In this document: positions 832-63,427 of the stretch, one piece after another
How the letters are laid out: every line of letters begins with the position of its first letter
How positions within the stretch are numbered: the stretch's first letter is position 1
Assembly: GCA_000004985.1 (NCBI GenBank)
Contig: GG738855.1
DNA length: 64,000 nucleotides
Source of the DNA: Naegleria gruberi
Lineage: Eukaryota
Strand: one strand, 5' to 3'
Program-made: the position numbers and the translations under genes
Notes under the pieces: model-generated
What the model saw: only the letters and a program-made list of their open reading frames with translations
The model's database searches: none
What the model was told of the DNA's origin: nothing

Positions 832-1181
832 TATCCAACAAATCAAATAAATAATTGTGTTCTCAATTCTCTTTTTCAACACATGAATCAATACAGAGAA
901 ATAAAGTCAAAGTAGGAATAATAGCTGACACACTTTGCTTTAATATGGAAAGCAATCCTTTTCGAAAAATTTCAGCGCCTTTTCATTTTAATTTCTAACA
1001 GAAAAAAATACCTAGACCGTTAAAAGTGAACCTTTGGGTCATCACTAACTTTTCATCATCACTCGCTAGTTTTATTCCTTAAAACACAAAGAGAAGGAAT
1101 ATCATCAATCGATTGTTTGGCCAATATTTACCAGTTTGGTCAATTTCTAAATTATCTAGACTAGTTTTATTTATTCACTAG

Positions 1182-42064: not shown

Positions 42065-43021
42065 TTATTTCTTTTCCTTTGCTTGATGTTTCATTATTTC
42101 ACTGTATTGGTGATTAAATATTTTTGTTAATTGACTGAGTCTTGAATTGGTTTGATCGTCAGTGGTTGTTCGTTTGGCTTTTGCAATTAATGTTAATGAA
42201 TGATACTTTTTGAGGAGAGTAAGAATGTCTTTCCTATCAGCAAATTCCTTACAAACAATCTCAAATTCAATGCTCGAAAAATCTACGGAAACGGACAAAG
42301 GATTTGATTCCATGTTTCCCGTTAATGAATCATATAAATATCCAATTAATTGAATATCCTTCTTCTCGAATAATATGTAGTACGAAAGAGTCAGATAGAA
42401 TAATCTGGCTTTCTGTGAATTATTACTCATTAATTTTCCAGCTAATTCCAATCCCTGTTTGAATCGACTTTTGTTCTCCTCCTTTAACGCCCACTCCTTT
42501 TTCAGTTCATTAAATACTTCCTCAAATAAATTATTACAAGAAATTCTATGACTCTCAGTTATTTGTTTCCATTCATCATTCCACTTTTCAATTTTAATAT
42601 TGATCGGATCTATTTTAGAGGGAGATGGTGTGATAACTTCAACATTTAAATTCACAGGTTTATCAGGGGTTTTCTCTACCTTGTTTTCTGTGATTTTCTC
42701 TTTGGGTTTTTCAGGTGTTATTGTTACTGGTATTATTTCTTCTTCATCAGGTATCGATTGTATTTCCGACATCATACTAGAAATTACTATTGGCTCCATT
42801 GTTTCAGAAGGCTTATTTGGTTTTTTCTTTTTTGAAATGGGCACTTCTGTTGAAATAGGTGCCTCTTCCTCACTATCATCATCATCGCTAAGTGATGTCC
42901 TATTATTAAAGAGGCTAACCATAGATCTTTTTCCATTTCTATTTGTACTACTATTACTGACAACTACAGATGAAGAAGCTATTGGTATCTTTTCCTCTGG
43001 TAATGCACTATCTATTTTCAA
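42065..43021 (-). CDS. Hypothetical protein; N-terminus may extend into the assembly gap
   Basis: 318-aa ORF with an acidic, Ser-rich N-half and a helical C-half. An upstream same-strand ORF runs into the N-run at 43218-43267. Confidence 0.4.
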   Translation of the reverse strand: MKIDSALPEEKIPIASSSVVVSNSSTNRNGKRSMVSLFNNRTSLSDDDDSEEEAPISTEVPISKKKKPNKPSETMEPIVISSMMSEIQSIPDEEEIIPVTITPEKPKEKITENKVEKTPDKPVNLNVEVITPSPSKIDPINIKIEKWNDEWKQITESHRISCNNLFEEVFNELKKEWALKEENKSRFKQGLELAGKLMSNNSQKARLFYLTLSYYILFEKKDIQLIGYLYDSLTGNMESNPLSVSVDFSSIEFEIVCKEFADRKDILTLLKKYHSLTLIAKAKRTTTDDQTNSRLSQLTKIFNHQYSEIMKHQAKEKK

Positions 43022-45054: not shown

Positions 45055-45817
45055 ATGCCAGCATTGAAGAAGCCAACAAATACGTTGCTGAAAAACACTC
45101 AAGTATCAGCTTCCTCCTCGGGAGTTAATAATAATACATCATCACTGCCAACAACACATGTTGGTGCCTCCTCTTCTTCTACCGTACCAAGAAGTGGCAC
45201 GATTTTGATGAATAATGTGCCTCAAAGTAATACTCTGGAGAATACACCAAAAAGGACTGTACAAATGTTGTCGGCTCCCCCTCAACAACAGGCTCAAACA
45301 GCTTCTCCTTCTACAACAACTACACAAGCCAAGAGAGGAAGAAAAAAGAAATCGGATACAGTCAAGAAGGAATTATTTGTCGATACAGCAACTAAACCCG
45401 AAGCACCTACAACAGAACCTGTAACATCATCAATCATTCAAAATAATAATACTACACCAACAAAATTAGTGTGCCCATCAACACCTACAAGAAAAAAGAA
45501 GAATAGACCAACATTTGCTGTAGCAAAAATCAAAAGAATAATTCAATCAGATGAGGAAATTGGTAAAATATCTGCTGTTGTTCCTATTTTAATATCTAGG
45601 GCTTTGGAACTTTTTATTCAGGATTTAGTTGTCACATCATCAAAAATTACTAAAAAGAAGAATGCTGGTACTGTGACAACAGCTCACTTGAAAGAGACAA
45701 TAGAGGCAGAGGATAGATTTGATTTTTTGAGAAACAAGGTCAAAAATATTCAATTATTATCTACATCTAACGATGCTGTAATGAGTGACGATGATGAAAG
45801 TACAGGAAAGAAAGTAA
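45055..45817 (+). CDS. Histone-fold protein (NF-YC/POLE4/DRAP1-like), 3' end lost in assembly gap
   Basis: A Ser/Thr/Gln-rich N-terminus precedes the histone fold RPTFAVAKIKRIIQSDEEIGKISAVVPILISRALELFIQDLVVTSSKITKKKNAGTVTTAHLKETIEAEDRFDFL. The ORF runs into the N-run beginning at 45818. Confidence 0.65.
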
Positions 45818-46294
45818 NNNNNNNNNNNNNNNNNNNNNNNNNNNNNNNNNNNNNNNNNNNNNNNNNNNNNNNNNNNNNNNNNNNNNNNNNNNNNNNNNNN
45901 NNNNNNNNNNNNNNNNNNNNNNNNNNNNNNNNNNNNNNNNNNNNNNNNNNNNNNNNNNNNNNNNNNNNNNNNNNNNNNNNNNNNNNNNNNNNNNNNNNNN
46001 NNNNNNNNNNNNNNNNNNNNNNNNNNNNNNNNNNNNNNNNNNNNNNNNNNNNNNNNNNNNNNNNNNNNNNNNNNNNNNNNNNNNNNNNNNNNNNNNNNNN
46101 NNNNNNNNNNNNNNNNNNNNNNNNNNNNNNNNNNNNNNNNNNNNNNNNNNNNNNNNNNNNNNNNNNNNNNNNNNNNNNNNNNNNNNNNNNNNNNNNNNNN
46201 NNNNNNNNNNNNNNNNNNNNNNNNNNNNNNNNNNNNNNNNNNNNNNNNNNNNNNNNNNNNNNNNNNNNNNNNNNNNNNNNNNNNNNNNNNNNNN
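45818..46294. other. Assembly gap (run of N)
   Basis: 477 consecutive n characters. The gap truncates the histone-fold gene on the + strand and the 3' end of the S1P gene on the - strand. Confidence 0.99.
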
Positions 46295-49200
46295 ACTTTA
46301 GAGTGAAGATGCATATCAGAGCCTGGCCCTCTCTCTGGAAGAGCACTGCTTTGTGAAATGAATAAGTGAGAAAGAGTTTTGATGTTTGCATCCTTAATAA
46401 ATTCCTCACTCATTTTGTGTTGGCTTGTGTATTGGAGAATTTGATCCAACAACCAGAAACAATTATGTGTTGGATTTCCAACAGCATCTAAACAATTAGA
46501 GTCACCAAATACTGCTATTCTACCTTTTCCAGATTTTGAAAATCCTAGTACTGGTACTTTGTGGATTGTACTGGAGGAGTCTGTTCCAAGAATTGGTTTT
46601 GAATTTTGTTTTCCACTCAAAATTTCAATACCTTGATCTTTAAGATGGAAAGAAGCAAGCATACCTTCTTCAGGGAATTTAATAATACTAGTTCCTGAGA
46701 GGAAAGAAGCCTTCTCTTTTCCAATTGTTATCTCACCTGTATAGACTCTTGTACCAAAAACAATGTTGAAAGGATCCAACAATGCATTCAGTGCTGGTAA
46801 ATTACAACCTCCAGTAATTGGAGTCCAAACAGTATAGGTATTATCATCGAAAAATTTGATATGTTTCATGATTGGAACGCTGTACCAGTCAGCAAAGACA
46901 GCAACAGAAAGACCATAAACTTGAACATCTTCTTTCAGTTTTTCTCTCTCTTTTTCTGTAAATTCTTCTTCAGAGTCTACAATCATGAGAGTAGAATATT
47001 TGGATGCATCAAAGGTTGTGAGATCTCCGGTTAGGATTTCAACATAATAACCCTTGTTTCTCAAGAAAATATACAAATCTCTAAAGTTGGTATGGATATG
47101 ATCACCATTCCAGTCCAAAATTTCATCCTTATTACCTAAATTATCTCTTGGAATGTAACCTGGTGGATATTGAATGTTATGATATTGATCCCACAATATT
47201 CTTTGCTGTCTCAAGGGTGGTTGAATTACCTTGACTTTTAATTTAAGTTCCATCTCACTAACTTGCATCTCGTTGCCATCTTTTCCAACTCCCAAAGGAG
47301 GTGACATGATTTTCATCTTGATTGTTCCTTCACAATAGCCATTGAAAAATCTTCCTCCACTATTAACAGAGATTTGTACACCCAACCATCCAGAATATGG
47401 CCACATTACCCTTGGATGAGTAAAGGTAACATCTAAAAAGTCACCATACTTTCCAGGTACAAAAACTGGTTCTCCAACAACTCTTCCAGAGGCGCTCATA
47501 GCATTAAGGACAGTAACATTGAATACAATAGGCATTGCAGTATGATAAATAGGTTGTGAACAGTATGGCCACATGTATGGGCAAGATGTAAGATCCAATT
47601 CACTAGGATAAAAAGTAGCTCTAGGTTTGGCTTTTTCCATGTAATCTTGGAGTAATTCGTAGGCCTTCTCTAGGTTTAGTTTACCTGCTCCTTGTTCGAA
47701 AATATTGGCATGATGAACTCTTTGAGCTGATTCTAAAAGTATTTGCTTGATACTGGCTGGATTAATGAGTGGCAATAAAGAATTATGAGTATTTGGATAG
47801 TCATCCATTTTAGCTCTTATTGAAATATCGTCAGAGTTTTGAGTAGAGGTATCCTTATTCTTCAGAGTACTACTGGCAAGGAGAGTAATAGCACCAGCAA
47901 TAACTGGACTTGCTACACTTGTTCCAGATAAAATAGAATGACAATATCCAACATTGTCACCAGCCTTATTCAACCCAAGTCCTCTAAGTTTGACTGACAT
48001 GGTTACAATGTCTGGTTTAACTCTTCCATATCCATTATTAAAACGTAACTCGTAAGTGGTAACACCTCTACTGCTAAACTTTGCAATATTATCATTATCG
48101 TCAATACCTCCAACACCAATCACATTTACAAGATCTGCAGGATTGTTAAGTGTTCCATAAAGAGGGCCATCATTACCAATGGCAGAAATAATAATAATAC
48201 CGTTGGCTGTGAGTTCCTTTACCTTATCTATGAATGGGATATCGAGGTAATCAGGTCCACCAATGCTCAAATTCAAGATTTGAATACCAGATTTCATAGC
48301 ATAATTGAATGCATCCAAAAACCAGGATGTATACGAAACTTGTTTGCTTGTAAATACTTTAAAGATGAAAACAGAGGCTTCAGGAGCAAGACCTCTACAT
48401 CCAGATCCCCTTTCCTTCTTCTCATTAAAAGGTTGTGTAGTGTTGGACTTTGGTGTGTAGGGTGTCAAATGCTTAGAGCCAATAACTCCAGAGATGAAAG
48501 TACCATGACCTAACTCATCATTTACAGAGTCTTCTGTTGTATAATTTATCATATCTTCAATATGAGAGAAGGATTCTTCATGTTTAGTACTGGAAAGTCC
48601 AGTATCAAAAACAGCAACTCTAATATTTTGTCCATAAATACCCTGTTCCCAAAGTTTGTGGGCATTCAATTTTTCTGAAACATCAACATAGGAATGACTT
48701 GGATGATTACATAATTTTCTCCTGTGATGGTGGTGGTCTGAATATTTATCCTCGGTTGACCATTGAGTAAATAATTTTCCAATACTATTAAGAATTGAGT
48801 GATCTTGTTCATCATCTGGAAGTGTTTCAATATCGTGATTGAGTAATTTTCTTTCATTGTTCATCATGTTGTGATATTCATGTTGACGAACAACATATCG
48901 TACAAATTGAGTCCTTGACTCTAATTCTGACTTTAAAGTAATATTTTCAAATTCAACAAGTGCAAAGTCAGTGTCAAACATTCTAGTAGCTGCATTATCC
49001 CTTTCAATTATTTTATATCCTCTATGAGTTCCTCCTAAAAGTGTGCTAATGTATTCATCATGTTTAAATGCTTTCATATATTCTTTAAACATGACAATGT
49101 ACCTCTCTCGTGATGTAGGAGTTGTATTGTTATTGTTGTTATTTGATGCAGTTGCTCCTTCCATATTTTGACCACTACTATTACTACCAATACTACTGGT

Positions 49201-49596
49201 ATTAAACTTCTTACACATCCTGTGTAAATTCTTCGATTTTACGAAAGGAATGGGTTGGAAAAATCTTTCATACATTTTCCTAACAGAGCATTGATTTGAC
49301 GTGCTACTATGAGCAGCCATTACATAAAATCCACCACTTTCAATATTGGTGTCAAACTCGTAACCTTTCAATAATTTAGAGAGGTCTGATATTATAATAT
49401 AAAGAGTTAGTATTATTATTAGTGATAACAAAATTGTTTTGAATAGTTTAGATGATTCTCGCTTCTCGTATCTATGTACATTTCCTATTATTTTCTTATT
49501 GTTTATATTAAAAATATTATTGTTATTGTTGATATTAAATTGCCTCAATCCGGAATTCCGTGATGAATGTATTTTAAAATATAAATTGTTCATCAT
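46295..49596 (-). CDS. Site-1 protease-like subtilase (MBTPS1/S1P, peptidase S8) , C-terminal end in gap
   Basis: N-terminal hydrophobic anchor or signal (LFKTILLSLIIILTLYII). The subtilase catalytic triad blocks are present: VAVFDTGL (Asp), HGTFISGVIGS (His) and GTSVASPVIAGA (Ser). A long region of about 450 aa after the catalytic domain is characteristic of S1P, unlike kexins or furins. Confidence 0.75.
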
Positions 49597-49845: not shown

Positions 49846-51505
49846 TCACACAATTTTTGGCAAATGTTCTCTTCCAACACCAATGCTTAACATGTTGCCA
49901 ATGTCTCGATTACTGGTAAGAGTTGTAATTTCTCTTACAGCTGGCCTCTTTGGAACACTGCTCTTATTCCAGAAAGTCAAAAATCCCACAGATTTGTTAC
50001 TCCCTCTGCTAATACTTGGCATTCTTGAAGAGGTGCTTCCATCCTTATTGTTGGAACCATATTTATGATCTAAAACACTTCCAAGATCTGATAGTTTGCT
50101 CTTTCTATCGTAATTACTTGTATCAAATGTTTGGGGCATTGATAATAATGATTTCTGCTTCTCCTTTTGTTTTCTTTTTTCAATGTAATTCTGTGAGTCA
50201 TTCATGTCAGTGATAAAAAAGCTCTTTGTTGAGCTAGCTTCTTCCTCTTCGTAGAAATCTTTCTCTGACAGTCTTGGAATAAGGTTTGCCACATCTTCTG
50301 TAATGATTCCTTGTTGATCCATCCATTCTGAGAATATTTTGGATCTTCTCTCTGCCTTCTCGTACATTTCTTGTGATTTTTTGGATTGCTTTTCAAGGTT
50401 AGAGACCTTCTTTTCTCTATTGGATTGCCGTTTCTTTCGTTCTTCTCTTAATTGCTTATTGACTTTCCTCTGCTCAGCAATTTGTTCTTGAGATAAGGTC
50501 TTGTTGGCATGATCCATATCTACAACCTCCTCAGTCTGTTTCTTTCTTCTCTTCTTATTTTTCTTTACATTGGATGACTTTTCCATGTCATTCTTTGAGG
50601 GGATACTTGCTTTTTCCTCTGAGCTTCCACTATACTTTTCATAGTGGTAGGAAAAATGCTGGCTGTCAATATAGGCTATCGAATCGGAAATATGGTCATT
50701 TCTTTTATCATTCTTCACCTTTTGATTTTCTGCACTGAATCCGTGGATGGCTATGAAATCATCAAATTTGATAGGGAGCTCTGCTTCTCTATTTTTCAAT
50801 CTTTCTCTTTCTTCTGGAGGAATTTTGAGATATCTTCTAAAGGTTTCATCCTCAATTGTTTTGGCTAATGCCTCTGGGTCTTGTTCCTGTAATTGGGGTG
50901 AACCATTGGAATCAGAAGACATTGAGGAAGACGCTCTCGAATCAATATCATATGTATCAGTCATCATTGGACTAAAATTATTATCAACTCTATCTAGAAC
51001 GTGTTCTTCGACAATATTTTTCAATTCAATACTGATTTGTGGATTAATTGAGGGTAGTTCAATTTTGATTCCAAGATTTGAGGCTGGAGGNNNNNNNNNN
51101 NNNNNNNNNNNNNNNNNNNNNNNNNNNNNNNNNNNNNNNNTCTTCATCCTCAATAACATCCGCTGTAATTCCATAAATTCCTCCAATAGAAGTTTCTATT
51201 CTGTTTTTAATTATATCAAAAGACTCTCGCACCTCTGGCATGAATTGTTCAGCATCCATTCCTTCTTCAATTTCATCAACCTTACTTCCAATTAGTTCCG
51301 ATGCTTGTAAATTTTCGTTAAATGTTGAACTATTCATACTAGTGGAGAAGGCCTTCTCCTCTTGAAGAATTTTCGCCTTCTCCTCCTCATCAAAATACTC
51401 ATCATCTTCATCGGCACCAACAGTGACTATGGTAGGCATCTTTGTGTTGGATTTTTTTCTATGTGGTGTAAATAATAACGTTATGGACAGTTGGTCCTTC
51501 TTCAT
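49846..51505 (-). CDS. Hypothetical acidic/Lys-rich protein interrupted by assembly gap 51091-51140
   Basis: Two same-strand ORFs flank the N-run: 51141-51505 (N-terminal part) and 49846-51090 (C-terminal part). Both have charged, coiled-coil-like composition. The reading frame across the gap is unknown. Confidence 0.4.
51091..51140. other. Assembly gap (run of N)
   Basis: 50 n characters inside a minus-strand coding region. Confidence 0.99.
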
Positions 51506-51689: not shown

Positions 51690-54205
51690 ATGTCTTCGAT
51701 ATGGCGTAACTCTATGGGTTCAAATTCGGGTGGAAATACATCATCAAAGAGTACTAAAAATCAATCTTCATCATCAAATAATATACAATCATCAGCAATA
51801 CCCGGATCATCAACAGTTTCGAATGCCAATCCTTCTCAACAAGCTTCAACAAAGAAGACAACAGGAAACACTACAACTAAAAAGAAGAAAACTAAAAAGA
51901 ATGATGATAATACATCGGTAAATACAGGTTCTACATTCTTTGCCACATCATTCATTCCAATGCATTCAGCCTCTCTTCTGAAAGGAATCACACCAATTAT
52001 GCCCGGGCCAAAAACTGTGAATCAAGGATTTTTAACCATGTCCTCTGCTCCTTCTCTTCCTCCATTTCCTACCGCCAAACCTTCTCAATCTCCATCCACG
52101 ACAGCAACAACACCAGTCACACCACCTACAACCACTACAATTCCAAAAGCAGCAACTGCATATGATTCCGAAGAGGATTTGCCAAGTTATAGTAGTAATT
52201 CAAGTGATCAATCAGATTCGAGTAGTGATGATAGTAGTAACTCTGAATCATCAGACTCCTATAGTTCTGCTTCTGATTCTGAACTAAAAAAGAAAAAGAA
52301 GAGTAAAACTAAAAAATCAACATCAGCAAAAAAGAAGGATGACAAGAAGGAGAAAAAGAAATCTAAAAAAAAAGAAAAAAGGGAAAATAAGGAAACAACT
52401 CAATCCAAAACTCAAACTGTTAAAACTGTGGAAGAGGAAAAAAAGGTTGTAAGTGATGCTAAAAAAGATCAAGCAATTATGCCACCACCAAAACCAGTGG
52501 TACAATCGGAACAACCAAGTATTACCACTAGCTCTTCAACCAATACAACAACGACGAGCTCAACTCCTGTTGCCACTGATAGTTCAACTAATAGTTCAGC
52601 AAACACTCCTAGTAGCACAGAGCCACCAGTAAGAACTAAAAGAAAGTACACCAGACGAAAGGATAAGGAAGCAGCAGCCTCTACTGCAGCAACTACCACA
52701 AAAGATACAGAAACTCAAGGAAAGAAGAAAAGAAAAAAGAGAGAAGTCAACACATCGGAACCAGTAGTTTCAGATATAATTTCTCCAAAAAAGAAACAAG
52801 CTAAGAGCAAGACACAAATAGTAGAGCAGCCCACAGATCAAAACTTGGATCTTACAATTTATGCAACTGAGGATGATGACAAGTTATTTTTCATGGATAG
52901 AAATGAACGATCTATTAAGAAGAAATTGGATGATAATGGTAAGTTTGACTGTTAATTTTTCAAGAAATAACTTTTGAAGATTTATTTTATGGAAAGAATT
53001 ACAATCATGAAATTTTAAGGGATGAATTGGTGGGAATTCCATGGTGCTTTGTAAAAGAGTCAGAGGTGAATGGGGCAGAGAAGAGCAACTCAATCCAATG
53101 TACAACATATCTCGATGCTGTTAATCAGGAGAATCAATTTATTCTCCACTCCTCTGCACATGAAGTCGAGGATGTGGAAATGAAAAATACGAAAGAACAA
53201 GTTTACGAACCAGTATCTATTCAAGGAATGAATGCACTGATACCAATTGAGTTGATTCAAAATCCTGATTTATTTAAAACAATATTTAGTATGAATACTT
53301 GGAATAATGTGCTAAAGGAGGAACATAGGATGTTTTTGAAACAGTTTTTACCTCCATTACTAACATCGAAGTCAAACGAGTCATCACATCAACATAACGA
53401 AACTATTGAGGAAAATATTCCAAAACCTACCACCACTGTCGAAGAAGTAAAAGAAGAGCAGCTTACTTCTAGAGAAGCAGAAGAAAAAGAATGGCAAGAA
53501 TTGATGAATGGAAGTGGAATGCGTCACAAGAAGAATCTTTCAACATCATCACTTTCTCAATCCTCAAAACAAAACGATTCAACATGTAATTCTAAGAAAT
53601 CAACAGATTCACCATTGCTTGTAAAAACTCTCACTCAACTTTTTAACAAAACTCCATTCCTATTCAATCATGAAAATGATTTATCAAAGTTTGTAAAAAG
53701 AGTAAGAAATGGCCGCTATCACCCTACTGTCCAATTGGAAAAACAACAAATGAAATATCTTCTCTCTATTAATTTGAGAATGGAATATCACTTATATATT
53801 GAGTGTGAGCTACTTGCCAGACGTAGATTATCAGCCCTTCAAAAGATCAACACTCTAAAGCTTGCTCTTCCACCTTGTATGACAAAACCAAATCAAGCAA
53901 CATTGACTGCCATCGAAAAACGAAAGCAACAACTCTTTGAGAAGAATAGTAAGATAGCTCTTCCTCAAGTGCAAAATTCAATGTTTATGGAACAACAACA
54001 AACTCAAATGGAACCACCAACCAGCACAACACCTTCTCAAAAGAAGGAAGAAGTTGAGAAATCAAAAGTTACTGCCACAACAACAGCACCAGTTGTTAAG
54101 GAAAGAAAGAAACCAGGTCCAAAACCAAAGAAAAAGAAAGATCCTTCGACAGATGCAGCTGCTCAGTTTGAGTTTGTTAATTTCAAATCCAAAGCAAGCA
54201 AGTAA
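51690..54205 (+). CDS. Hypothetical Ser/Thr/Lys-rich nuclear-type protein, two exons
   Basis: ORF 51690-52955 ends at a GTAAGT donor (52939). An AG acceptor at about 52965-52980 joins in frame to ORF continuing to 54205, which begins at a non-ATG codon (in-frame TTG) and therefore cannot be an independent start. The K-rich tails resemble a nuclear localisation signal. Confidence 0.55.
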
Positions 54206-54377: not shown

Positions 54378-57300
54378 ATGAGTCAAACTGCACGCTCGTT
54401 CCAATTATCGCAAAATAATGCATCGTTGAGCAGTCTTCTCAATAACACTAACAACAACAACAACACGAGCATGACAAGACCATCACCTCTCAACCTTTCT
54501 TCAATTAGTGATAGGGAAAAGATGGATCCATATCCAACGATTTCCCAACACTATCAAAAAGGTTTAGCAGTAAGAACACCATCATCAGTTGCTTCATTTA
54601 GGACTCAACAAACAAGACCTCAATCATCAGATCTTCTCTCCGGAAGAGTATCACCTTTTCTATTACATAAAAAAGGAGGACAGAATGGAAGGATGCGAGC
54701 CTCAGAAGATAGGGCTCCATCACCTTCTCCATCTGCTGTAAGGGAACAATTAAACAAATACAAGGAAAGCACTTCCCCAATTATAAAGAAACAATTCGAG
54801 GCAAAGAATAAATCAATGATGGAAAATACAGAAGATGAGAGCTCTATAAGAACAAATAATTCGAGCTTTTTTGATGACAAACGAAGTCTTCCTTTACTGA
54901 AAGGAAAACAAGAGAAAAAGAAAAGAAGTCAATCACCAAAATCAGCAAGAGGATTTCCAACAAATTTCGAAGACGAATTTTCAACCGATTATATGGATAC
55001 ACCACGAATAGGAAATTTATCAAAACCTCAAAAGTTGTTGACCTCTTATGATGACGAAAAGTACCAAATCAAAATTCTCATTGTTAATGACAGCTCCAGA
55101 TCAACAACAAAATACCAACCAAAATCTAACATGCTTCGAGATATTATGGATCAAACTGACCTAGATATACCAATGACGGACAAAATCACAAAAACTGAAT
55201 ATGAAAAACTGGAGAGAAGAGTTTCTGAAGAATTAGCTCATCTATCAACTACTCTTCTCCCTGGTCAATTAAAGAAATTAAAGAAGAAGAGATTAACCGA
55301 GTTATTAAGATCAAGACAAACCAAATCTGAAAAAATGATGCAAGGGTTATCAAGAATTGATATCCTGCTCCAAGATTATGAAACAGCTCAAAATAATAAT
55401 AGTGAAGTTGAGTTTTTAAGTGTAGATGACATTTCAGATTTAGTATTCAAAGAACAAGTGGACCGAGTTGGAGTGATTAACCAAAGTAGAGATAGAATAG
55501 CGGAAGTAACAAAAGACTTGGATCAACGATATAGCAGTAGGACAAATATTTTGAAAGGTATTATGAGTTGGATTCGATCATATGATGAAGATGGAGATAT
55601 TCTTACGGAAGACAAAGAGGAAATGCAAGAAATCGAGGGAATGCTGGATTTTCAAAATGAAAATGTATTGGAACCTTTAGGAAATGTACAGGAAAACATT
55701 GGTTTAACACTAGAAAGATTGAAATCTATTTTTGAAGAATATAAAATAATGAGGTTCTCGTTGTTGGACTTTAATGCAGAAACTTTTAAGGATGAAGAGA
55801 AGAGAAAATCATTCCTCAAAAAAATCACTGAAAAGTTTAAAAAGATTGAAACTGATATTGGAGATTCTATCACTGATTTGGATGGGGCAAATAGTGCTGT
55901 TGTTTCTCTCAAGACAAAATTAAAAGATAAGGAAAAGTTTATAACTGCTCTTGTTGAAAGAGACAAGAGACATGTGGAATTCTATGCCAAACTTAAAGAT
56001 AGGTATAATGAGCAACAAGGCATGCTGAAAGGCATTTTGAGCAGGCTTAAGCTTCCAGAAGTGAAAAATATTATAGATATTGGATTTATTTTAACAGGAA
56101 GACGTGGCTTATCAGATGAAGAGTTGGATTTGGATAGTATTGAAAGACAAATTAATGAAGGTTTTACTGAGGATGAAGAGCTTCTCAAACCAAACTATGA
56201 GATCCTAAAGGCAACAGCTGCTTACCAAGATATGGATACTTCAGATGATGAAGAAATTCAACAACGTAACCGAAAGAAGAAGAAAAAGAACAACGCAGAT
56301 CTTTCAGATTCTAGCGATATTGAGGAAGGGGATACAAAGAAAACAAAAAAGAAAAAAGATGGTACTGTTAATGCTGATGAAGATTTGGATGACGATTTTG
56401 ATACTTCATCTCTAGAGTTCGATATGGACGATTATGAAGATGAAATGAGAGAGGCAGAGACAAAGAGAACTGATATTAGTCATGTTTGGATGTTGGACAA
56501 TTGTTATAATTACGAGTTGGATAAGAAGGAATTCCCTTACATTCCTGGTTCAGTTGATCTTGAAAAGTTTACCCCTGCTGAATTAAAACTCTACTTGACT
56601 GCAGATGGTTTATTCAAGACGGTGAAACGAATGGAAAATGATAGAATGAGATCTCAAGACTTTGATGCTAATGAACTTCAAAGATTGATCGACATGGAAG
56701 AAGCTCACTACATGAAAGAGGAAGATCAAGAACATCAAAGTAAGATGGCTGCTTCTGTTATAGAAAAATTAACTGAAGAAATTGATAGACTTAAGAGTAT
56801 TCTCGTAGAAAAAGGAGTTGACTCATCTTCATTAGTAAATCCTGATCTTGGTAAAACAGTTAAAGATTTCCACGTAATGAAAACACAACAAGAAGAGAAA
56901 CATGCAATGTTAAGTAAGATGTTAAAAGAAGAATACTCAAATCAACATGCTCAACACTACTCAAATCAAACTCAGAACAATGGAAAACAACCTTCAGGAG
57001 TACAACACAATATTAATTCAAGTAACTTAAATCCTGTTACTGGCAATAATAACCAGGGATCCTATCCAACAGATTATGGTGGGTTTGAAGCAAAACGACC
57101 TAATCGAGGAAGATATGGTTCAATGATTGGGCAGGCACCAGATAATAGGCAGGACAATCTTGAATTAAGAGGAATGGATAACGAGAGAAGGAAATGGTTG
57201 ATGGATAAAGAACGTGCAGAGGCAGATCTATTGAAATTGAACACTGAAATTAAGAAACTGAGGGTGGCCAAAGCAAAGATGAATAAGGGAGATCCATCTC

Positions 57301-58238
57301 AACAAACAGGAGAGGGTGATGCTACAGGTATGGGCATCGAAGAAGGTGGCACTTCCAGTTTTGATGTTTCTAACATTTCATTATTCAAAGGGGCCACTGA
57401 AGAATTCAAACCAACAAGCGAAATTCTTCGAGAAATTGAAGACATTTACGATTCAGACGAGCTAAAATACATAATTAACATTATTCTTATGGAGGCTGAT
57501 AGATTGATAGATTATATTTACTATATGCACAAGAAGATTAGAAAATTCCTCTCTTTCTTGAACTTCTTCACAAATATGAAAGGACCGAATAATTCTAAAT
57601 ACTCTGAGGAAGAGTTCTTGGCAGATTGGATTAATCTAAACAAGAAGATTGACAAGAGTATAAAGGCTAAAAAGTCAAAGAATGGAGCTGAATCTCCTTG
57701 CAACTCTCCAAGATCAAGTCCAATATCTCCAAAGAGAAGAGGTGCTGGTGTTTCTCACAGGGAGGCCGTCAGAGATCAGCTGAACTTCTTAATTGAAGAA
57801 ACAGAGGACGAAAGCAAAACAAAGAGAAACCCATCTAAATTGAGTAAATCCATTACTGCGTTAATGATGAAGATTTATAATACAGTGAAGCAGTACAGAT
57901 ATAAGGTTAAGGTTAAGGGTTTGGAAGAATCCTCTCACGGCTCAAATTCACCAGTTAAGAGAGACAGAAACTACAAAAGTGCTTCCCAACCATTTGTTCC
58001 AAAGCCTCCAAAAGAATCGAGACCAGCCCAAATCAAAGTATCCGCAATGACAAGAATGTTGAAACATCAAGAAGAAGCCAAGAAAAGATGGGAAGAAAAG
58101 AAGATGAGAATTCTGCAAGAGGAGTTGGCAAAAGGTCAAATGTTTTACAATGTCAAAACTTCAGGAACTGGTGCTCAGCAAATCCAGAAGCACTTGTACC
58201 AGTTATGGCAAATGATGGGAAAACACCAAGAAATATAA
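54378..58238 (+). CDS. Hypothetical large coiled-coil protein
   Basis: 1286-aa uninterrupted ORF. The N-terminus is Ser/Asn-rich, the middle has extensive heptad-like charged segments, and the C-terminus is basic. No catalytic motif is recognised. Confidence 0.5.
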   Translation: MSQTARSFQLSQNNASLSSLLNNTNNNNNTSMTRPSPLNLSSISDREKMDPYPTISQHYQKGLAVRTPSSVASFRTQQTRPQSSDLLSGRVSPFLLHKKGGQNGRMRASEDRAPSPSPSAVREQLNKYKESTSPIIKKQFEAKNKSMMENTEDESSIRTNNSSFFDDKRSLPLLKGKQEKKKRSQSPKSARGFPTNFEDEFSTDYMDTPRIGNLSKPQKLLTSYDDEKYQIKILIVNDSSRSTTKYQPKSNMLRDIMDQTDLDIPMTDKITKTEYEKLERRVSEELAHLSTTLLPGQLKKLKKKRLTELLRSRQTKSEKMMQGLSRIDILLQDYETAQNNNSEVEFLSVDDISDLVFKEQVDRVGVINQSRDRIAEVTKDLDQRYSSRTNILKGIMSWIRSYDEDGDILTEDKEEMQEIEGMLDFQNENVLEPLGNVQENIGLTLERLKSIFEEYKIMRFSLLDFNAETFKDEEKRKSFLKKITEKFKKIETDIGDSITDLDGANSAVVSLKTKLKDKEKFITALVERDKRHVEFYAKLKDRYNEQQGMLKGILSRLKLPEVKNIIDIGFILTGRRGLSDEELDLDSIERQINEGFTEDEELLKPNYEILKATAAYQDMDTSDDEEIQQRNRKKKKKNNADLSDSSDIEEGDTKKTKKKKDGTVNADEDLDDDFDTSSLEFDMDDYEDEMREAETKRTDISHVWMLDNCYNYELDKKEFPYIPGSVDLEKFTPAELKLYLTADGLFKTVKRMENDRMRSQDFDANELQRLIDMEEAHYMKEEDQEHQSKMAASVIEKLTEEIDRLKSILVEKGVDSSSLVNPDLGKTVKDFHVMKTQQEEKHAMLSKMLKEEYSNQHAQHYSNQTQNNGKQPSGVQHNINSSNLNPVTGNNNQGSYPTDYGGFEAKRPNRGRYGSMIGQAPDNRQDNLELRGMDNERRKWLMDKERAEADLLKLNTEIKKLRVAKAKMNKGDPSQQTGEGDATGMGIEEGGTSSFDVSNISLFKGATEEFKPTSEILREIEDIYDSDELKYIINIILMEADRLIDYIYYMHKKIRKFLSFLNFFTNMKGPNNSKYSEEEFLADWINLNKKIDKSIKAKKSKNGAESPCNSPRSSPISPKRRGAGVSHREAVRDQLNFLIEETEDESKTKRNPSKLSKSITALMMKIYNTVKQYRYKVKVKGLEESSHGSNSPVKRDRNYKSASQPFVPKPPKESRPAQIKVSAMTRMLKHQEEAKKRWEEKKMRILQEELAKGQMFYNVKTSGTGAQQIQKHLYQLWQMMGKHQEI

Positions 58239-58284: not shown

Positions 58285-61200
58285 TTAAGGTTTATTGAAT
58301 TGTTGCTTGTCAACTTTCTTCATAATATAGTCAACAAGTACAGATGAGTATCTTTCTAACATATCAGACACTTCAACTTGCTTTAAATCTGTTGAATTAA
58401 GGTTATTGTTACTCGAGTCCAAACCACTCACTGATGGGAATACAAATTGAGAATGGCTATTGGACATACTAGCACTTTGGCTCATTCTGACATTCATTTG
58501 AGCAACCATTTTCTGGAACGAAGAAAGAATCTCTAATGATGTTTCAGAATGGGATACTGATAGTTTTTCCATCTCTTGCATAGTATCCTCAAATACGCTT
58601 GTTAATTTGGCGATATTATTCTTTATCTTTCCAACAGAATCCAATCTTGGAGAATGAATTTGAACCATGTCAGACTGATCGAGTCTTGTTTCCTCAGTTT
58701 TTCCATACTCTACAGTGTCATCATAAGAAGTGAGGGCCAGTTGAGGGGAGTTAAATATAGGATTTGGTAAGTTGTTATTTACAACTGGACTTGTTTTCTT
58801 AGGAACTGGAATGGAAGCAATCTCTTCTTCAGCTGTGTGTGCAGCATTCATTATTTGAAGCATTTCTTCATCTTGTTCTGGTTCTTCGTCCTCAGATTCT
58901 TCAGCAACTTCATGCTTGGAGAGAACTTCTTTAAAGTCATTAAGTTTCTTGTTGATTTCCTCCTTTGAAACCTTGAAGGCTGGTTTTATCTCGTCGGTTT
59001 TGAGACTAGTCTCACATTCATCCCTGAGTTGTTTGACAACAGAATCTAAAGTAAATCTCTCTGCAGATTGCTCAACTTTAGCCAACTCCATTGAGTGTTT
59101 GAACGAAGAGCTGATACTAGCTCTCATAAATGATGGTATTGCTAAAGGTTTTACAAGATCTTCTTCCAATTGCTTAGATACCATCTTTGAGTACTCTCCT
59201 TCATCATCTTCACTATCTTCATCATCGCTTGCTGCTTCTAAATCTCCAAGTTCGATAGACTCAGAAACATTGTCAGATTGAGATATAATATTTACATCAT
59301 TGACTTCTTCCAATGGAGCCTTTTCAATTGAAATTTCTGCAACATGTTCATTTTCTGCAACCTGGAAGCTGGTATCTGCTGAATTTTCATTTGAATCAAA
59401 GATAATTTCTTCTTCCGATACATCATCATCACTTAGATCCAAACTTTCAGTATCAGACTCCTCCAGTATATGTTCCTCAGAGTTGACAAGATCGTCATCG
59501 TGGTGAATAATAATTGGAAGAACTGGTCTTTTGTAGGTGAGAGATCGTTCCGTATCACTAATATTTGATGCCAACTTGAATCCATCTCTCTCCACTTGTC
59601 CCCATTTTGATAATGGTTGCAACTTATCGTCTTCATAGACCTTTGGAGACAAGGAGTTCTTGGTCCAATGTGATAAACTTGGTGAGCTCTCTTCAGTTTG
59701 TGATGGTTGTTCATCCTTATTTCCAAGATCAAATTGTTTGCTGAGTGATTTAACTAAATCAGAGGAAGCCAATCCTCTTGAAGAAGGTGGAGAAGGTAAG
59801 TTAAAGTCTATCATTGGTGATTTAATTTCTTCCTCCAGTTTTGACAATTGAATAGGCACAATAGTTTCCTTTGGAAGTGGAATTGGAGGGACTGGGGTCG
59901 AAACAATCTTTTCAATTTCTGAAAGCCTTTCTTGCATGTTCTTAGACAATTTGGTTCCAATACTCCAGATAAATATGCAGCCATCAGCTGAAGTGGTAAT
60001 TAACCTCTTCAAATCAGGAGTAAAGTTAATTGAAGTAATAACGTCAGAGTGACCTTTAACTCTTGCAATAGACACCTTTTTGTAGAATGAGTAAACTCTC
60101 AAATGCTTATCTGAAGCACTTGTAACAGCTAAAATACCTGCAGGACAAAGCTTAACTCTGAGTGGATCAGCATTATCACAACCAGTCTTAACTGGCTTTG
60201 GATCTTTTGTGTCAATATATTGTTTACATTTACCAGAGTCAATGTCATAAATATTAATCTTCTTTCCTTGACCAGCAGTAACAGCCCATTTACCAGTAAC
60301 ATCAGCGTCAAGATCGAAAACAGAGAATGGAGAGGGTGTTTGTTGGTATCTGACAACTCTAACGGATTTCTTTTGAGGGACATCTTCAACTCTTCTGAAA
60401 ACTACCGACTTATCAGCTCCCACACTCACAAGTTTAAGGGAATCACCAGTTGGTTTTTGAGTGCTGAGAGTGAATTTAATTGACGTCACAGAGGAGCTGT
60501 GATCATCCAATGTTTGAACAACTTCAGTTTTTCCATCTTTCATTCTGTATAAGTGAATCATTCTATCTCTACTTCCAGAACCAAACAAAACGTCCCCATT
60601 TTGTGTTTGATAGGAATCAATGCAAAGAACTTCAGACTCATGAGCAAATTCGTCATACTTGGAATCAAAGTTGAATACGTCATGCACTCTGACATGTCCT
60701 TGTTTGTCTCCTGAAATGATATTGCAACCATCTGGAGAGAATCTAACACTTCTAATACCTCCTTCAACAGTCTTGTCATTTGGTGGAATATGAAGAACGG
60801 CAAGAAGATCTTTACAGAATGCACTCTTGCCAGCAACAGAAGATCTGATATTTTCCTCTTGCTCACCAGTTTCTAAATTCCAAAATCTAATAGTATTATC
60901 TGCAGAGCATGTTGCAAAAGTGTTTTGAGGGAAAGGGGATTTTGAATTTCTTGGAAGAACATCTGCTCCCCAGATGCAACCAGAATGGCTAATGAATGAT
61001 CTGTATTTGCAGATAGATTGAAGATTTGAAATGTCCCAAACGAAGAAGCTTCTATCATCATACATTACAGAAATCTTATCTCCGAATATTCCACAAACAA
61101 TAGCATTAGGGGCATCTATTTCAGAAGAAGTTGGTTTGATGTAACTCTTATTAACGCTCGAAAATACGCTCCTCAATGTAATGTGAGCTGTAGATGGAGG

Positions 61201-62249
61201 AGGTTCAGGAAGAGTTTTCTTGAATTGTAAAGTTTTTGTCTCGAACAATCTTACAACACCCTTAGCACATGAAATGGCAACATATTTTTCTGCAACTGAA
61301 ACGCAGTATGCTCTCCCAACTTTGATATTGACCCAACTTTGAAGTTCCTTTGATTTTGGATCTACTTTACATAAAATACCATCCATTGTGACAGCATAAA
61401 CCTCAGCAGTGTCATTTCTTTTGATTGTTAAAGAGAAGGGATATGGTTAATTACTTACTTTCCTCTGAAGGCAATAGAAACAAAGTTAGCTTGCTTCCAA
61501 ACATCAAGGTTTGTCGAGACTGATTGAACAGAGAAAAGTTTTGCTGATCTAGAAATTGACCAAAATCTAACAAATCCTTTTCCTACAGTAATAAATCCAT
61601 TATCGTCACTAGGTGAGAGAATTAAATCATTTGTTTCATCAACAGTTTTTGAAAATTTCAATTCGGCCTTTCCTCCAGCTGAGATATCCCAAATTTTCAA
61701 TTCATTTTCAAAGCCAACACTTAAAACTAATTTGGAATCTTTTGAGAAGCAAATATTCTTGACTTCATTTTGATGACCTTTTTCTTTGCTCTTTAGTTCA
61801 CTGAAAATTTTTGGTTTTGTTTCTTCAAATGTTTGAGCAAACACTTGATGTAGGTCCCAAACAACAATTGATGGTTTTGGTCCTTTTTCACCTGCTGCTA
61901 AATATTGACCACATTTCGAAAATGCAATACAATTGAAAGCCTTGTTTGATGTTGGATGTTCTAAAAACCTAAGTTGCTTATTCCTCTTAACATTATAAAC
62001 TACAACAATAGTGCCTGCCAAGTATGCAACCACTTCCGAATTCATGCTGCTATTACCTCCGATCATTAATGGCAGAGCTCCACTTGTAGGAAACAATGAC
62101 GGATGCAATTTAAAAGATTGCGAATTGAGGACAGTACTTCCGATAATTCTCTCTAATTTAAAACTTTCTCCCCCAGAAGCAAAAGAACCTTTTTTAACTG
62201 ATTTTAATGAAGAGGGGTTCTTCTTTACATTCCTATCACCGAGGTCCAT
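58285..62249 (-). CDS. WDR62/MAPKBP1-like WD40-repeat scaffold protein, two exons
   Basis: Exon 1 (61459-62249) begins the WD propeller with VVAYLAGTIVVVYNVKRNKQLRFLEHP...AFSKCGQYLAAGEKGPKPSIVVWD...VRFW, colinear with the WDR62/MAPKBP1 N-terminus. A 41-nt intron (61418-61458, GTAAGT donor) follows. Exon 2 (58285-61417) continues the WD repeats and then a long acidic/Ser-rich C-terminal half. Confidence 0.75.
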
Positions 62250-62524: not shown

Positions 62525-63427
62525 TTATTGAGAGTAAGTTTTTTTGGCCTCCAAAATTCTACCAATATTATCCAACAAGACATGGAAATTTGGAGCTGAT
62601 ATTAACTCTGATATTGAAACAGGTTTTCCATTATTCGAATTGTTTAGTTTTGAAACAAGTGATTGAAGAACGACAACTGCTCCATGTTGCCCATATAATT
62701 GAGAAATTTGCTGTAATATTTGAGTGAGTTTCCTTTCTTTGTTGAGATGATGTTCTTTAGTTTTTTGCTGATGAAATTGAAATAATTCCCATTCACTATT
62801 GAGTTCATCTGCTGATATTGGTGTGAGAGGTAAAAGACCATCCCAACTGTAATTAATAGTAAATGGTTTTAATGAAGGAGGATACAGTTTTTGGCCTAAT
62901 TGAGCATCTAGGAAGGTGCTATTTGGTAGTGGTTGTAAATTCGAATCGGTTGAAATATTCGAAGGGATGTGTATGATGTTGTTGTCATCAGAGGAAACTA
63001 GTTGATTATTCATATTATTATTATTGAAAGGAATGATGTATGGTTGAAAGGTGGTGGTATTATTGTGGCTGTTATTATTACATGGAATGGAAGAAGATTG
63101 GATGTGGTAAATGTTCTGTTGGGGATTACTAGAATTTTGTAGTGGTTGGCAATTATTAGAAGAGAGAAGGTGATTTGGACATGTTGTTTTTTGTTGGCGG
63201 TATGTAAAGAGATGTTGATTGTTGGCAAACTCTGTATTACTTATGACGAAGAACTTTTGTGATGAATTAGAGTTATTTGTTGATGTTTGGTTATTCGTAT
63301 GGTGATGTTTTGATGTTGATGAATTGGAGTTATTTGTTGATGTTTGGTGCTGCACTGTTCTTGTATCATTATAAACCACTTGCATGCAAAATAAAAGGTA
63401 CGGTATTTTGTTTGAAAAGGGAATCAT
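62525..63427 (-). CDS. Hypothetical Asn/Gln/Ser-rich low-complexity protein
   Basis: 300-aa ORF with poly-N tracts and an internal tandem duplication (QTSTNNSNSS appears twice). The C-terminal ~120 aa is more complex. Function is unknown. Confidence 0.4.
   Translation of the reverse strand: MIPFSNKIPYLLFCMQVVYNDTRTVQHQTSTNNSNSSTSKHHHTNNQTSTNNSNSSQKFFVISNTEFANNQHLFTYRQQKTTCPNHLLSSNNCQPLQNSSNPQQNIYHIQSSSIPCNNNSHNNTTTFQPYIIPFNNNNMNNQLVSSDDNNIIHIPSNISTDSNLQPLPNSTFLDAQLGQKLYPPSLKPFTINYSWDGLLPLTPISADELNSEWELFQFHQQKTKEHHLNKERKLTQILQQISQLYGQHGAVVVLQSLVSKLNNSNNGKPVSISELISAPNFHVLLDNIGRILEAKKTYSQ

Follow-up and report, generated by a model that had tools for sequence, protein, structure and literature searches.

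A site-1 protease (MBTPS1/SKI-1) gene of Naegleria gruberi, truncated at an assembly gap, and its possible role in intramembrane proteolysis

The human and hamster site-1 proteases (S1P; MBTPS1, SKI-1; structures 8UW8 and 8UWC) have an ectodomain consisting of a prodomain, an S8 catalytic domain, a P-like domain and a GIFT domain. Outside animals the enzyme is textbook knowledge in plants, where AtS1P (SBT6.1) acts on bZIP17 and bZIP28 with no known sterol link, and where its substrates also include RALF23 and pectin methylesterases. Plants are not known to have SREBP, yet both S1P and the site-2 protease (S2P) have been kept. The roles of the residues that form the human substrate pockets were set by mutagenesis; the pockets read Arg at P4, an aliphatic residue at P2 and Leu or Lys at P1, and the site motif was defined as R-X-(L/I/V)-Z (PMC12067269). 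The roles of human W556, at the interface with SPRING, and of the essential N515 glycan come from a second study (PMC11231238).

The Naegleria enzyme is already known, having been tabulated together with S2P for the genus in 2021. Table S14 of Herman et al. (2021, BMC Biol 19:142) lists N. fowleri g1459 (NfowleriV212_g1459) and N. gruberi 38345 under the labels 'S1P' and 'site-1 peptidase', with S2P alongside, and JGI 38345 is very probably the gene described here. That listing and the present analysis share family and genus; the listing gives BLAST evidence only, and domain structure, pocket conservation, the missing 3' end and the chimeric RefSeq model are not part of it. In the literature searched, no main text was found to connect Naegleria to a site-1 protease, to SREBP, S2P or ATF6, or to intramembrane proteolysis; only these supplementary tables did so.

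The N. gruberi gene lies on the minus strand of a 64-kb window, the whole stretch of DNA that was analysed, at the coordinates where a first-pass annotation had placed an S1P-like subtilase (Table 1). Its frame runs from an ATG at 49596 to 46297 through 1100 complete and uninterrupted codons. The two bases that follow codon 1100, 'GT' at 46296-46295, are the first two of a Val codon, compare '...SKV...' in the orthologues, and the run of Ns starts immediately beyond them. The loss of the 3' end into the gap, also proposed at first pass, is borne out in this way and by the orthologues, which run about 105 residues further. The composition of the gene (GC 35%, GC3 26%) is like that of the window.

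Table 1. Features of the N. gruberi S1P gene and the adjoining gap, in window coordinates
Feature	Position	Residues	Strand	Remarks
S1P (MBTPS1) CDS	46295..49596		-	single exon, 3'-truncated at assembly gap; ORF and translation
Assembly gap, 477 N	45818..46294		.	conceals about 105 last S1P codons and the 3' end of a convergent histone-fold gene
N-terminal hydrophobic segment LFKTILLSLIIILTLYIII, signal-anchor or uncleaved signal	49390..49446	51-69	-	Kyte-Doolittle 19-mer mean 2.62
Prodomain MBTP1_N (PF23001), inhibitory/chaperone A-domain equivalent	48883..49110	163-238	-	E 2.9e-10, 40.8 bits (cutoff 27)
RKLL, candidate autocatalytic 'B-like' site	48841..48852	249-252	-	fits R-X-(L/I/V)-Z
RRKL, candidate autocatalytic 'C' site	48712..48723	292-295	-	aligns column for column with human site C RRLL186
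Peptidase S8 catalytic domain (PF00082)	47683..48633	322-638	-	E 2.8e-32
Catalytic D331	48604-48606	331	-	VAVFD331TGL; human D218
Catalytic H364	48505-48507	364	-	GH364GTF; human H249
Insertion 1, lineage-specific, KHLTPYTPKSNTTQPFNEKKERGSG	48400..48474	375-399	-	directly behind catalytic His helix
Oxyanion N475	48172-48174	475	-	human N338
Catalytic S560	47917-47919	560	-	GTS560VASP; human S414
Insertion 2, Naegleria-specific	47770..47862	579-609	-	behind catalytic Ser helix
P-like beta-sandwich MBTPS1_3rd (PF23094)	47221..47610	663-792	-	E 7.4e-46, match 1-129/130
GIFT/GATase-like domain MBTPS1_4th (PF23090)	46390..47217	794-1069	-	E 7.3e-107, match 1-272/275

Judged by its sequence, the gene is a genuine but ordinary N. 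gruberi copy of S1P (MBTPS1/SKI-1; MEROPS S8), as the first-pass annotation had suggested. A Pfam search found all four S1P domains, MBTP1_N, Peptidase_S8, MBTPS1_3rd and MBTPS1_4th, and the last two make up the long post-catalytic region that had been taken as typical of S1P. In a search of the PDB the human S1P structures 8uwc/8uw8 matched residues 164-1100 with 765 bits (E 9e-229); the next matches were subtilisins at about 62 bits, a score gap of about 700 bits. The ectodomain is 47% identical to the solved S1P structure, and domain by domain the identity to mammalian S1P is 62% for S8, 44% for the P-like domain and 49% for GIFT. Among the matches listed, animal and plant S1Ps are 43-49% identical over 72-90% of the length, and the S1P-specific P-like and GIFT domains were present in all of the best 120 database matches. 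Ordinary subtilisins (BPN', Carlsberg, savinase), kexin/furin and tripeptidyl-peptidase II resemble the Naegleria protein in their S8 fold and Asp-His-Ser triad, but they match at about 50-62 bits over the catalytic domain only, lack the MBTPS1 P-like and GIFT domains and have other specificity. N. fowleri has a separate tripeptidyl-peptidase II (TPPII) orthologue (Herman et al. 2021).

The active site is fully recognisable. The three triad motifs quoted at first pass are present and catalytic, and an oxyanion Asn completes the tetrad; all four residues are invariant in a nine-sequence alignment that includes animal and plant S1Ps. In the same way every experimentally defined specificity residue of the S1, S2 and S4 pockets is identical to its human counterpart in the alignment (7/7): D476 of S1 (human D339), Q419 and I445 of S2 (Q282, I308), and T423, D449, D452 and N485 of S4 (T286, D312, D315, N348). 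Human F289, L306, G310 and F318 are likewise identical. N. gruberi and the other heterolobosean orthologues examined keep the pocket of the inhibitor PF-429242 in full. Conservation extends to the residues of the SPRING/prodomain interface (P454, N465 and W732, the last being human W556, in the P-like domain) and to an N-glycosylation sequon of the P-like domain, N693-V-T695 (47512-47520), which corresponds to human N515/T517. Thus the catalytic tetrad, the S1, S2 and S4 residues, the inhibitor pocket, the tested SPRING-interface residues and the N515 sequon are those of the human and hamster enzymes. A search of the SPRING literature found no statement on conservation outside animals.

Plant S1Ps (here Nymphaea, Amborella and Taxus) have the same architecture and pocket residues as the Naegleria protein. 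In the 306-315 loop both have F313Y and M314L, and both carry an '(R/K)RKL'-type motif in the column of site C. The plant enzymes differ in forming a separate clade with 100% support, in their short N-terminal signal and in being without the heterolobosean insertions; the known plant substrates are those named above.

The N-terminal part differs from that of human S1P. A membrane anchor or signal had been noted here at first pass, and a hydrophobic segment was indeed found; it follows a 50-aa Asn/Lys-rich extension, predicted to be cytosolic, where human S1P has a 17-aa cleavable signal. In N. lovaniensis and an environmental relative (P0003) the equivalent segment lies behind an extension of about 100 aa, whereas in animal and plant S1Ps it occupies residues 1-20. 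Identity in the prodomain region falls to 20% with mammals and 32% with plants, and the human B/B' site is not positionally conserved. Within aa 1-330 there are only two candidate autocatalytic motifs. RKLL252 is canonical and kept in N. lovaniensis and Willaertia, and lies off the exact human B-site column. RRKL295, where human S1P has RRLL, sits in an HHH(R/K)RKLCNH block that is conserved in 4/4 heterolobosean sequences; its assignment as site C is tentative because its P2 residue is Lys, outside L/I/V.

The S8 domain carries two insertions that are absent from human and hamster S1P. The first is found, at variable length, in 4/4 heterolobosean sequences of the alignment and not in animals or plants. 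N. gruberi, N. lovaniensis and the environmental relative have the second, which Willaertia, animals and plants lack. The two insertions could alter how accessible the active site is.

The C-terminus of the N. gruberi copy, including its own membrane anchor, is missing from the sequence because of the run of 477 Ns. Heterolobosean orthologues continue past the gap edge as '...HLYSKVP...ARPxNGSN...LRVILPIFFM..LIYLS.S(R/H)(R/K)K...KRHTV', and three of them (N. lovaniensis, Willaertia and the environmental relative) have a C-terminal TM helix (Kyte-Doolittle 2.76-2.91) and a short basic tail (SRRK.../KRHTV). As in human and hamster S1P, the heterolobosean orthologues are type-I-like. The first-pass expectation that the gap hides a C-terminal TM anchor is supported by these three TM segments at the break point, and by alignment the missing ~105 residues would comprise a stalk, the TM helix, a short basic cytosolic tail and the stop. 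The missing 3' piece was not recovered from metagenomes: an exact 35-mer scan gave 0 matches, and when contigs were scanned under protein guidance from the last 150 residues, none of 183 pattern matches was confirmed.

The existing database entry needs care. Over the shared part RefSeq XP_002680054.1 (UniProt D2V753) agrees with the N. gruberi protein at 100% identity, but it is a chimera of three unrelated pieces without the true N-terminus and C-terminus, and it is therefore unsuitable for alignments and structure modelling. Single-exon orthologues were found in N. lovaniensis, Willaertia and the environmental relative. The N. lovaniensis protein is 74% identical (dN 0.21); against it and the environmental orthologue only dN (about 0.21-0.23) is reportable, because saturation of the synonymous sites leaves no dS to compute.

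A neighbor-joining (NJ) tree of 825 columns, midpoint-rooted and made of S1Ps only (the outgroup, subtilisin BPN', was left out), separated Heterolobosea, plants, Amoebozoa and Metazoa into clades with 100% bootstrap each. Grouping with S1Ps as against generic subtilisins, proposed at first pass as a check on the identification, is carried by the bit scores given above, and within the tree of S1Ps the clades track the organisms. S1P appears to have been vertically inherited from an early eukaryotic ancestor and is not animal-specific. Its occurrence in a non-metazoan, which had been singled out for attention, is not unusual; orthologues from Amoebozoa and plant SBT6.1 reach the scores of the animal proteins.

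From these features a course of events may be proposed. The N. gruberi protein would enter the ER by its N-terminal hydrophobic segment, and the prodomain would be self-removed at R-X-X-L type sites, for which RKLL252 and RRKL295 are the candidates. The mature enzyme is predicted to stay anchored in the membrane and to work as a protease in the lumen of the Golgi or of the late secretory pathway, cutting after R-X-(hydrophobic)-L/K. Because Naegleria has a site-2 protease, S1P would most likely cut membrane-tethered proteins first, on the luminal side, and S2P would then release them; that transcription factors are among them is suggested by analogy with other lineages. As in plants and animals, some luminal proproteins would probably be processed as well. 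The clients are not expected to be SREBP, because the published catalogue for Naegleria has no HLH transcription factors, nor any recognisable ATF6, these being the classical human clients. The account that best explains the whole, and in which we have high confidence, is that of a vertically inherited early-eukaryote S1P acting as a membrane-anchored luminal protease on clients other than SREBP and a recognisable ATF6, with the nearby sterol methyltransferase unrelated.

What those clients might be can be narrowed to some extent. A tentative possibility is that S1P and S2P form an ER-stress branch of the ATF6/bZIP28 kind, which would free a divergent membrane-tethered bZIP. S1P cuts tethered bZIPs in animals (ATF6 and the CREB3 family, in reviews) as well as in plants (bZIP17/28), which suggests an ancestral pairing. 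In the published Naegleria tables (Table S14 and the protease table) S2P is entered as N. fowleri g6020, with 1e-20 / 1e-17 to the human protein, and as N. gruberi scaffold_9:254207-255622, the UPR table has S1P and S2P together with Ire1 and PERK-like kinases, and 13 N. gruberi bZIP_1 proteins are counted, among which the client would be sought (Herman et al. 2021). Against this, ATF6 is entered in the same UPR table as 'No clear orthologues'. The K/E-rich ORF at 49846-51186, upstream of S1P, was considered as a bZIP-like client and rejected, having no Pfam match and no TM segment.

Somewhat more doubtful is the proposal that the enzyme is mainly a secretory-pathway proprotein convertase for luminal or membrane substrates, for instance the lysosomal-enzyme targeting machinery or secreted precursors; S1P would then have no part in the release of transcription factors, and S2P would have other substrates. 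Many S1P substrates of animals are not transcription factors (GlcNAc-1-phosphotransferase, SPRING, BDNF, viral glycoproteins), the plant substrates RALF23 and pectin methylesterases are of this kind, and no tethered transcription-factor client is recognisable in the Naegleria tables of Herman et al. (2021). S1P and S2P are, however, retained together, which usually marks intramembrane proteolysis in two steps.

A far less probable reading links the gene to sterols. The first-pass annotation had noted an ERG6/SMT sterol methyltransferase (SMT) at 17765-18904, thought its proximity to S1P probably coincidental, and still took the two to point to a sterol-sensing proteolytic pathway. The methyltransferase is real (Sterol_MT_C, E 3e-24, at 17768-18532 on the minus strand, with an upstream exon that starts at 18904), S1P is real, Naegleria makes its own sterols, and S2P exists in the genus. 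The two genes are, however, 27 kb apart, a scale at which the proximity of eukaryotic genes is no functional signal, and are separated by many unrelated housekeeping genes, among them SF3A3, alpha-SNAP, an AAA ATPase, a tRNA synthetase and an ALG7-like glycosyltransferase. The 64-kb window encodes no S2P, SCAP, Insig, bHLH or bZIP. N. lovaniensis has its S1P gene in wholly other surroundings: within the 10-kb flanks lie LRR, nucleoside hydrolase, HSP20, ADH and SANTA genes, and neither a sterol gene nor any gene shared with the window was found there. The coincidence thus stands, and the methyltransferase is an unrelated neighbour.

The pathway itself is not supported by published data. HLH is missing from the 35 classes of DNA-binding domain in the Naegleria transcription factor catalogue, which is based on CIS-BP/Pfam and covers N. 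gruberi as well as three strains of N. fowleri (Herman et al. 2021). On that paper's scan there is therefore no SREBP-type bHLH-zip factor; in its supplements 'HLH' was found only as letters within sequences, and SCAP and Insig are not mentioned. Of the two partners named at first pass as decisive, S2P is present and SREBP is not, and ATF6 has no clear orthologue either. No literature was found that links Naegleria to SREBP processing. An SREBP-like sterol-sensing proteolysis, perhaps tied to the nearby methyltransferase, is largely refuted by the missing HLH factors and is highly improbable; that plant S1P acts without a known sterol link also speaks against it.

The likelihood is negligible that the gene encodes a generic secreted subtilisin, a pyrolysin or a tripeptidyl-peptidase II-like enzyme, or is a contaminant, pseudogene or assembly artefact. 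In favour of such readings, its only name in RefSeq and UniProt is 'subtilisin-like serine peptidase', a gap interrupts the gene and the database model is chimeric. Against them stand the S1P-exclusive P-like and GIFT domains, the score gap to any other S8 structure, the 1100 intact codons, the amino-acid conservation in N. lovaniensis (at saturated synonymous sites), the host-like base composition, the single-exon orthologues and the tree, whose clades match the organismal phylogeny; the domains, the scores and the tree already refute them.

The discovery value of the locus is small, and its practical points are modest: the chimeric RefSeq entry, a conserved inhibitor pocket and a system in which an ancestral client may be sought. 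Since the PF-429242 pocket is conserved in the heterolobosean orthologues examined, the orthologue of the brain-eating N. fowleri may be druggable with the existing compound, which suggests a cheap experiment on that species. With S1P and S2P present, and SREBP and a clear ATF6 missing, Naegleria is therefore a clean system for the question of the ancestral client. It is unlikely, but conceivable, that the S1P and S2P machinery serves an unrecognised class of membrane-tethered regulators, a divergent bZIP or a member of the expanded Zn_clus or RWP-RK families. If so, the identity of that regulator would reveal what regulated intramembrane proteolysis governed in early eukaryotes; ER stress, the lipid state of the cell and the switch from amoeba to flagellate are possibilities.

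The four Pfam domains characteristic of S1P (site-1 protease, MBTPS1) lie in order along the minus-strand reading frame (Table). Among all PDB sequences, the best matches were the human S1P cryo-EM structures 8UWC and 8UW8 (765 bits, E ~1e-228), with alignments that start at residue 164 and reach the final residue before the assembly gap. The next matches were ordinary subtilisins, at ~62 bits and over the catalytic domain only. A search of 5.8 billion proteins returned a 100% identical "subtilisin-like serine peptidase [Naegleria gruberi]" from strain NEG-M (XP_002680054.1 / EFC47310.1 / UniProt D2V753), followed by proteins of N. lovaniensis (72% identity), an environmental Naegleria-like contig (71%) and Willaertia magna (63%). 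Together these Pfam, PDB and protein matches identify the DNA as N. gruberi and, judged by sequence, the gene as its S1P orthologue, as the first-pass annotation had proposed. The bit scores and the S1P Pfam domains clearly rule out a generic subtilisin or pyrolysin. The composition of the gene (35% GC, GC3 26%) matches that of the AT-rich window (31-38% GC throughout).

Features of the S1P gene, its database model and its neighbourhood
Feature	Position	Strand	Details
S1P reading frame	49596-46297	minus	from ATG; 1100 codons, no stop or sign of intron
Partial codon after frame	46296-46295	minus	"GT" on coding strand
Assembly gap	45818-46294		477 N, directly after S1P frame
MBTP1_N prodomain	aa 163-238		E 2.9e-10
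Peptidase_S8	aa 322-638		E 2.8e-32
MBTPS1_3rd	aa 663-792		E 7.4e-46
MBTPS1_4th	aa 794-1069		E 7.3e-107
Catalytic-domain insertion 1	48400-48474	minus	25 aa, after catalytic-His helix
Catalytic-domain insertion 2	47770-47862	minus	31 aa, after catalytic-Ser helix
XP_002680054.1 exon 1	51439-51227	minus	
XP_002680054.1 exon 2	51030-49915	minus	
XP_002680054.1 exon 3	49383-46345	minus	
XP_002680054.1 exon 4	45416-45297	minus	
Upstream K/E-rich gene	49846-51505	minus	broken by 50-N gap, 51091-51140
Histone-fold gene, convergent	45055-45817	plus	CBFD_NFYB_HMF, E 1e-11; NC2-alpha/Dpb3-like
Sterol C24-methyltransferase exon 1	18904 to ~18637	minus	from ATG; ends "...SFHFATRY"
Sterol C24-methyltransferase exon 2	~18585 to 17765	minus	start region "...RESLIESILRHEYWLAK..."
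P4-ATPase (phospholipid flippase)	1605-4361 + 4591-5400	plus	two ORFs
MABP1/WDR62-like WD40 gene	58285-61386 + 61455-62249	minus	two adjacent ORFs
Very long ORF	19285-24603	minus	1772 aa; no Pfam match (E <= 1e-3 / 1e-4)
Very long ORF	54378-58238	plus	1286 aa; no Pfam match (E <= 1e-3 / 1e-4)
Mid-sized ORF	8973-11309		no Pfam match
Mid-sized ORF	25374-26693		no Pfam match
Mid-sized ORF	31021-32670		no Pfam match
Mid-sized ORF	42065-43021		no Pfam match
Mid-sized ORF	51690-52955		no Pfam match
Mid-sized ORF	53027-54205		no Pfam match
Mid-sized ORF	62525-63427		no Pfam match

The N. gruberi S1P was already known, since the protein is public with precomputed S1P Pfam domains in its database entry and a 2021 study tabulated the gene explicitly as S1P in both N. 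fowleri and N. gruberi (Herman et al., PMC8296547). The small additions made here are the demonstration that the RefSeq model is chimeric, the inferred content of the gap, and the finding that the specificity and inhibitor pockets are fully conserved. Also made explicit is that Naegleria combines S1P and S2P with no SREBP and no clear ATF6.

The protein was aligned with eight S1Ps, three of them heterolobosean, three from animals and two from plants. D331, H364 and S560 and the oxyanion residue N475 are invariant, corresponding to human D218, H249, S414 and N338. In human S1P, cryo-EM and mutagenesis defined an S4 pocket (T286, D312, D315, N348) that recognises arginine at P4 and is also where the inhibitor PF-429242 binds, with D339 in S1 and Q282 and I308 as the S2 gate (Bullington et al. 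2025, PMC12067269). The N. gruberi protein has the same residue at each of these seven positions (T423, D449, D452, N485; D476; Q419, I445), and likewise matches the hydrophobic pocket-lining F289, L306 and F318, and G310 (human numbering). The sole differences among the pocket residues compared, F313 to Y and M314 to L, occur exactly so in plants. P317, N328 and W556 are required for binding of the cofactor SPRING, and the N515 glycan for folding (Hendrix et al. 2024, PMC11231238); the equivalents P454, N465 and W732 and the sequon N693-V-T695 are kept. Identity to a mammalian S1P is 62% in the S8 domain, 44% in the P-like and 49% in the GIFT domain, and only 20% in the prodomain. We infer that the enzyme is active and retains R-X-(aliphatic)-(L/K) specificity. 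The S8 domain also carries two lineage-specific insertions, the first in all four heterolobosean sequences, the second in Naegleria-type sequences only and not in Willaertia.

The N-terminus opens with 50 residues rich in Asn and Lys, after which residues 51-69 form a strongly hydrophobic segment (Kyte-Doolittle 2.62). This layout recurs in N. lovaniensis and the environmental orthologue, with the hydrophobic segment after ~100 residues, whereas animal and plant S1Ps have a short signal peptide at the extreme N-terminus. Residues 1-330 contain no more than two R-X-(L/I/V/K)-Z motifs, both plausible candidate self-cleavage sites. RKLL249-252 is kept in N. lovaniensis and Willaertia. RRKL292-295, whose P2 is Lys, aligns column for column with the human autocatalytic site C (RRLL186), within an HHH(R/K)RKLCNH block common to 4/4 heterolobosean sequences. 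The column of the human B site is not conserved.

At the other end the translation breaks off at "...DMHLHSK(V)" at the gap edge. Three heterolobosean orthologues go on in the alignment as "...HLYSKVP..." for ~105 residues past this point, with a transmembrane helix (ILPIFFM..LIYLS, Kyte-Doolittle 2.8-2.9) and a short basic tail ending in KRHTV. The gap therefore hides the 3' end, with its predicted anchor, a loss that the first-pass annotation had noted. Two attempts to recover the missing end from metagenome contigs failed.

The database model XP_002680054.1 / D2V753 (1498 aa), mapped onto the window, is a chimera in which an unrelated K/E-rich gene is fused to S1P. Exons 1 and 2 belong to the upstream gene, which has its own stop codon at 49848-49846. 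The predicted "intron" that links it to S1P removes this stop and the first 71 codons of S1P, so that both the start codon and the hydrophobic segment are lost; the other two of the three introns span assembly gaps. The last exon lies beyond the 477-N gap and is antisense to the convergent histone-fold gene. In N. lovaniensis, S1P occupies one exon of 3708 nt, has an N-terminal extension of its own and follows a different upstream neighbour, which is on the opposite strand; the environmental orthologue is likewise single-exon. The correct model is therefore the independent ORF that starts at 49596. The upstream protein, with no Pfam family and no transmembrane segment, is probably a coiled-coil; at first sight it resembles a basic-region protein, but it gave no bZIP match. 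The histone-fold protein has a long Ser/Thr/Asn-rich N-terminus, and the 3' end of its gene lies in the same gap.

A neighbour-joining tree of 19 S1Ps (825 well-aligned columns, 100 bootstraps) gave four separate clades, each with 100% support: Naegleria and Willaertia, land plants, Amoebozoa (Cavostelium, Luapelamoeba, Ceratiomyxa) and Metazoa. Such a pattern fits an old eukaryotic gene passed on vertically, and argues against both animal-derived transfer and contamination. S1P is indeed present in this non-metazoan, but its presence, which the first-pass annotation had singled out, is expected, since plants and Amoebozoa have S1P clades of their own. Three environmental S1Ps from Logan/JGI contigs (P0005, P0006 and P0007), with 45-54% identity, are basal to the Naegleria/Willaertia clade, and P0007 has the heterolobosean C-terminal "ARPLHN...TM...SRRH" signature, which suggests that a wider uncultured heterolobosean diversity carries S1P.

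The sterol C24-methyltransferase annotated at 17765-18904 is genuine (Sterol_MT_C, E 3e-24). It has an N-terminal hydrophobic segment and two exons parted by a short in-frame intron with stop codons. The genes between it and S1P, and in the rest of the 64 kb, are unrelated housekeeping genes: a UbiE-like methyltransferase, P4-ATPase, SF3B1, WD40 proteins, a DnaJ protein, a START/Coq10-like protein, dual-specificity and tyrosine phosphatases, alpha-SNAP, SF3A3, an AAA ATPase, a class-I tRNA synthetase, an ALG7-like GT4 and the histone-fold protein. The window encodes no S2P, SCAP, Insig, bHLH or bZIP protein. The PhoLip_ATPase_C domain of the P4-ATPase is divided between its ORFs, implying an intron or a sequence error of ~230 nt, and the divided first WD40 domain of the MABP1/WDR62-like gene implies a short intron. 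The N. lovaniensis S1P locus (PYSW02000001.1, 665730-689437) has as neighbours an LRR protein, nucleoside hydrolase, HSP20, BTB, ADH, SANTA, mRNA cap methyltransferase and Zn_clus; its flanks (10 kb each side) share no gene with the N. gruberi window, so local gene order at S1P is not conserved between the two species.

SREBPs are bHLH-zip proteins. The UPR and ERAD machinery of Naegleria is tabulated in Table S14 of Herman et al. 2021 (BMC Biol 19:142, PMC8296547). There S1P is N. fowleri V212 g1459.t1 (BLAST E = 0 in both directions) and N. gruberi protein 38345; S2P is g6020.t1 (1e-20 / 1e-17) and an unannotated N. gruberi locus, scaffold_9:254207-255622; and ATF6 has "No clear orthologues". 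The same two genes appear in the protease table as "site-1 peptidase" and "S2P peptidase", beside a second, weak N. fowleri S1P-like S08A match (NfowleriV212_g9527, 2e-11 / 7e-20; PMC8296547). A census of Pfam DNA-binding domains, covering N. gruberi and three strains of N. fowleri (Table S3; PMC8296547), has 35 classes, with 13 bZIP_1 in N. gruberi and no HLH class. Thus, of the partners on which the first-pass annotation had staked its reading, S2P is present and SREBP, judged by this census, is absent; we conclude that Naegleria has both proteases but does not use them in a sterol circuit of the SREBP type, and the proposed sterol-sensing proteolytic pathway is unsupported.

These data establish a complete, conserved S1P with human-type pockets, a membrane anchor in its orthologues and, within the genus, S2P as a partner. 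By analogy with animals and plants, the protein would be inserted into the ER, remove its prodomain autocatalytically, probably at RKLL and/or RRKL, reside in the Golgi or late secretory pathway, and cut luminal R-X-aliphatic-L/K motifs. Its client may, tentatively, be a divergent membrane-tethered bZIP of an ER-stress-type branch; the census includes bZIP proteins, although a clear ATF6 is missing. Only slightly less probable is that the enzyme is mainly a convertase acting on luminal or membrane proproteins. A role in a sterol-regulated circuit is highly improbable, given the absent HLH class. It is conceivable, if unlikely, that the ancestral client belongs to an unrecognised class of membrane-tethered regulator, and for such a class PF-429242 is a ready probe.
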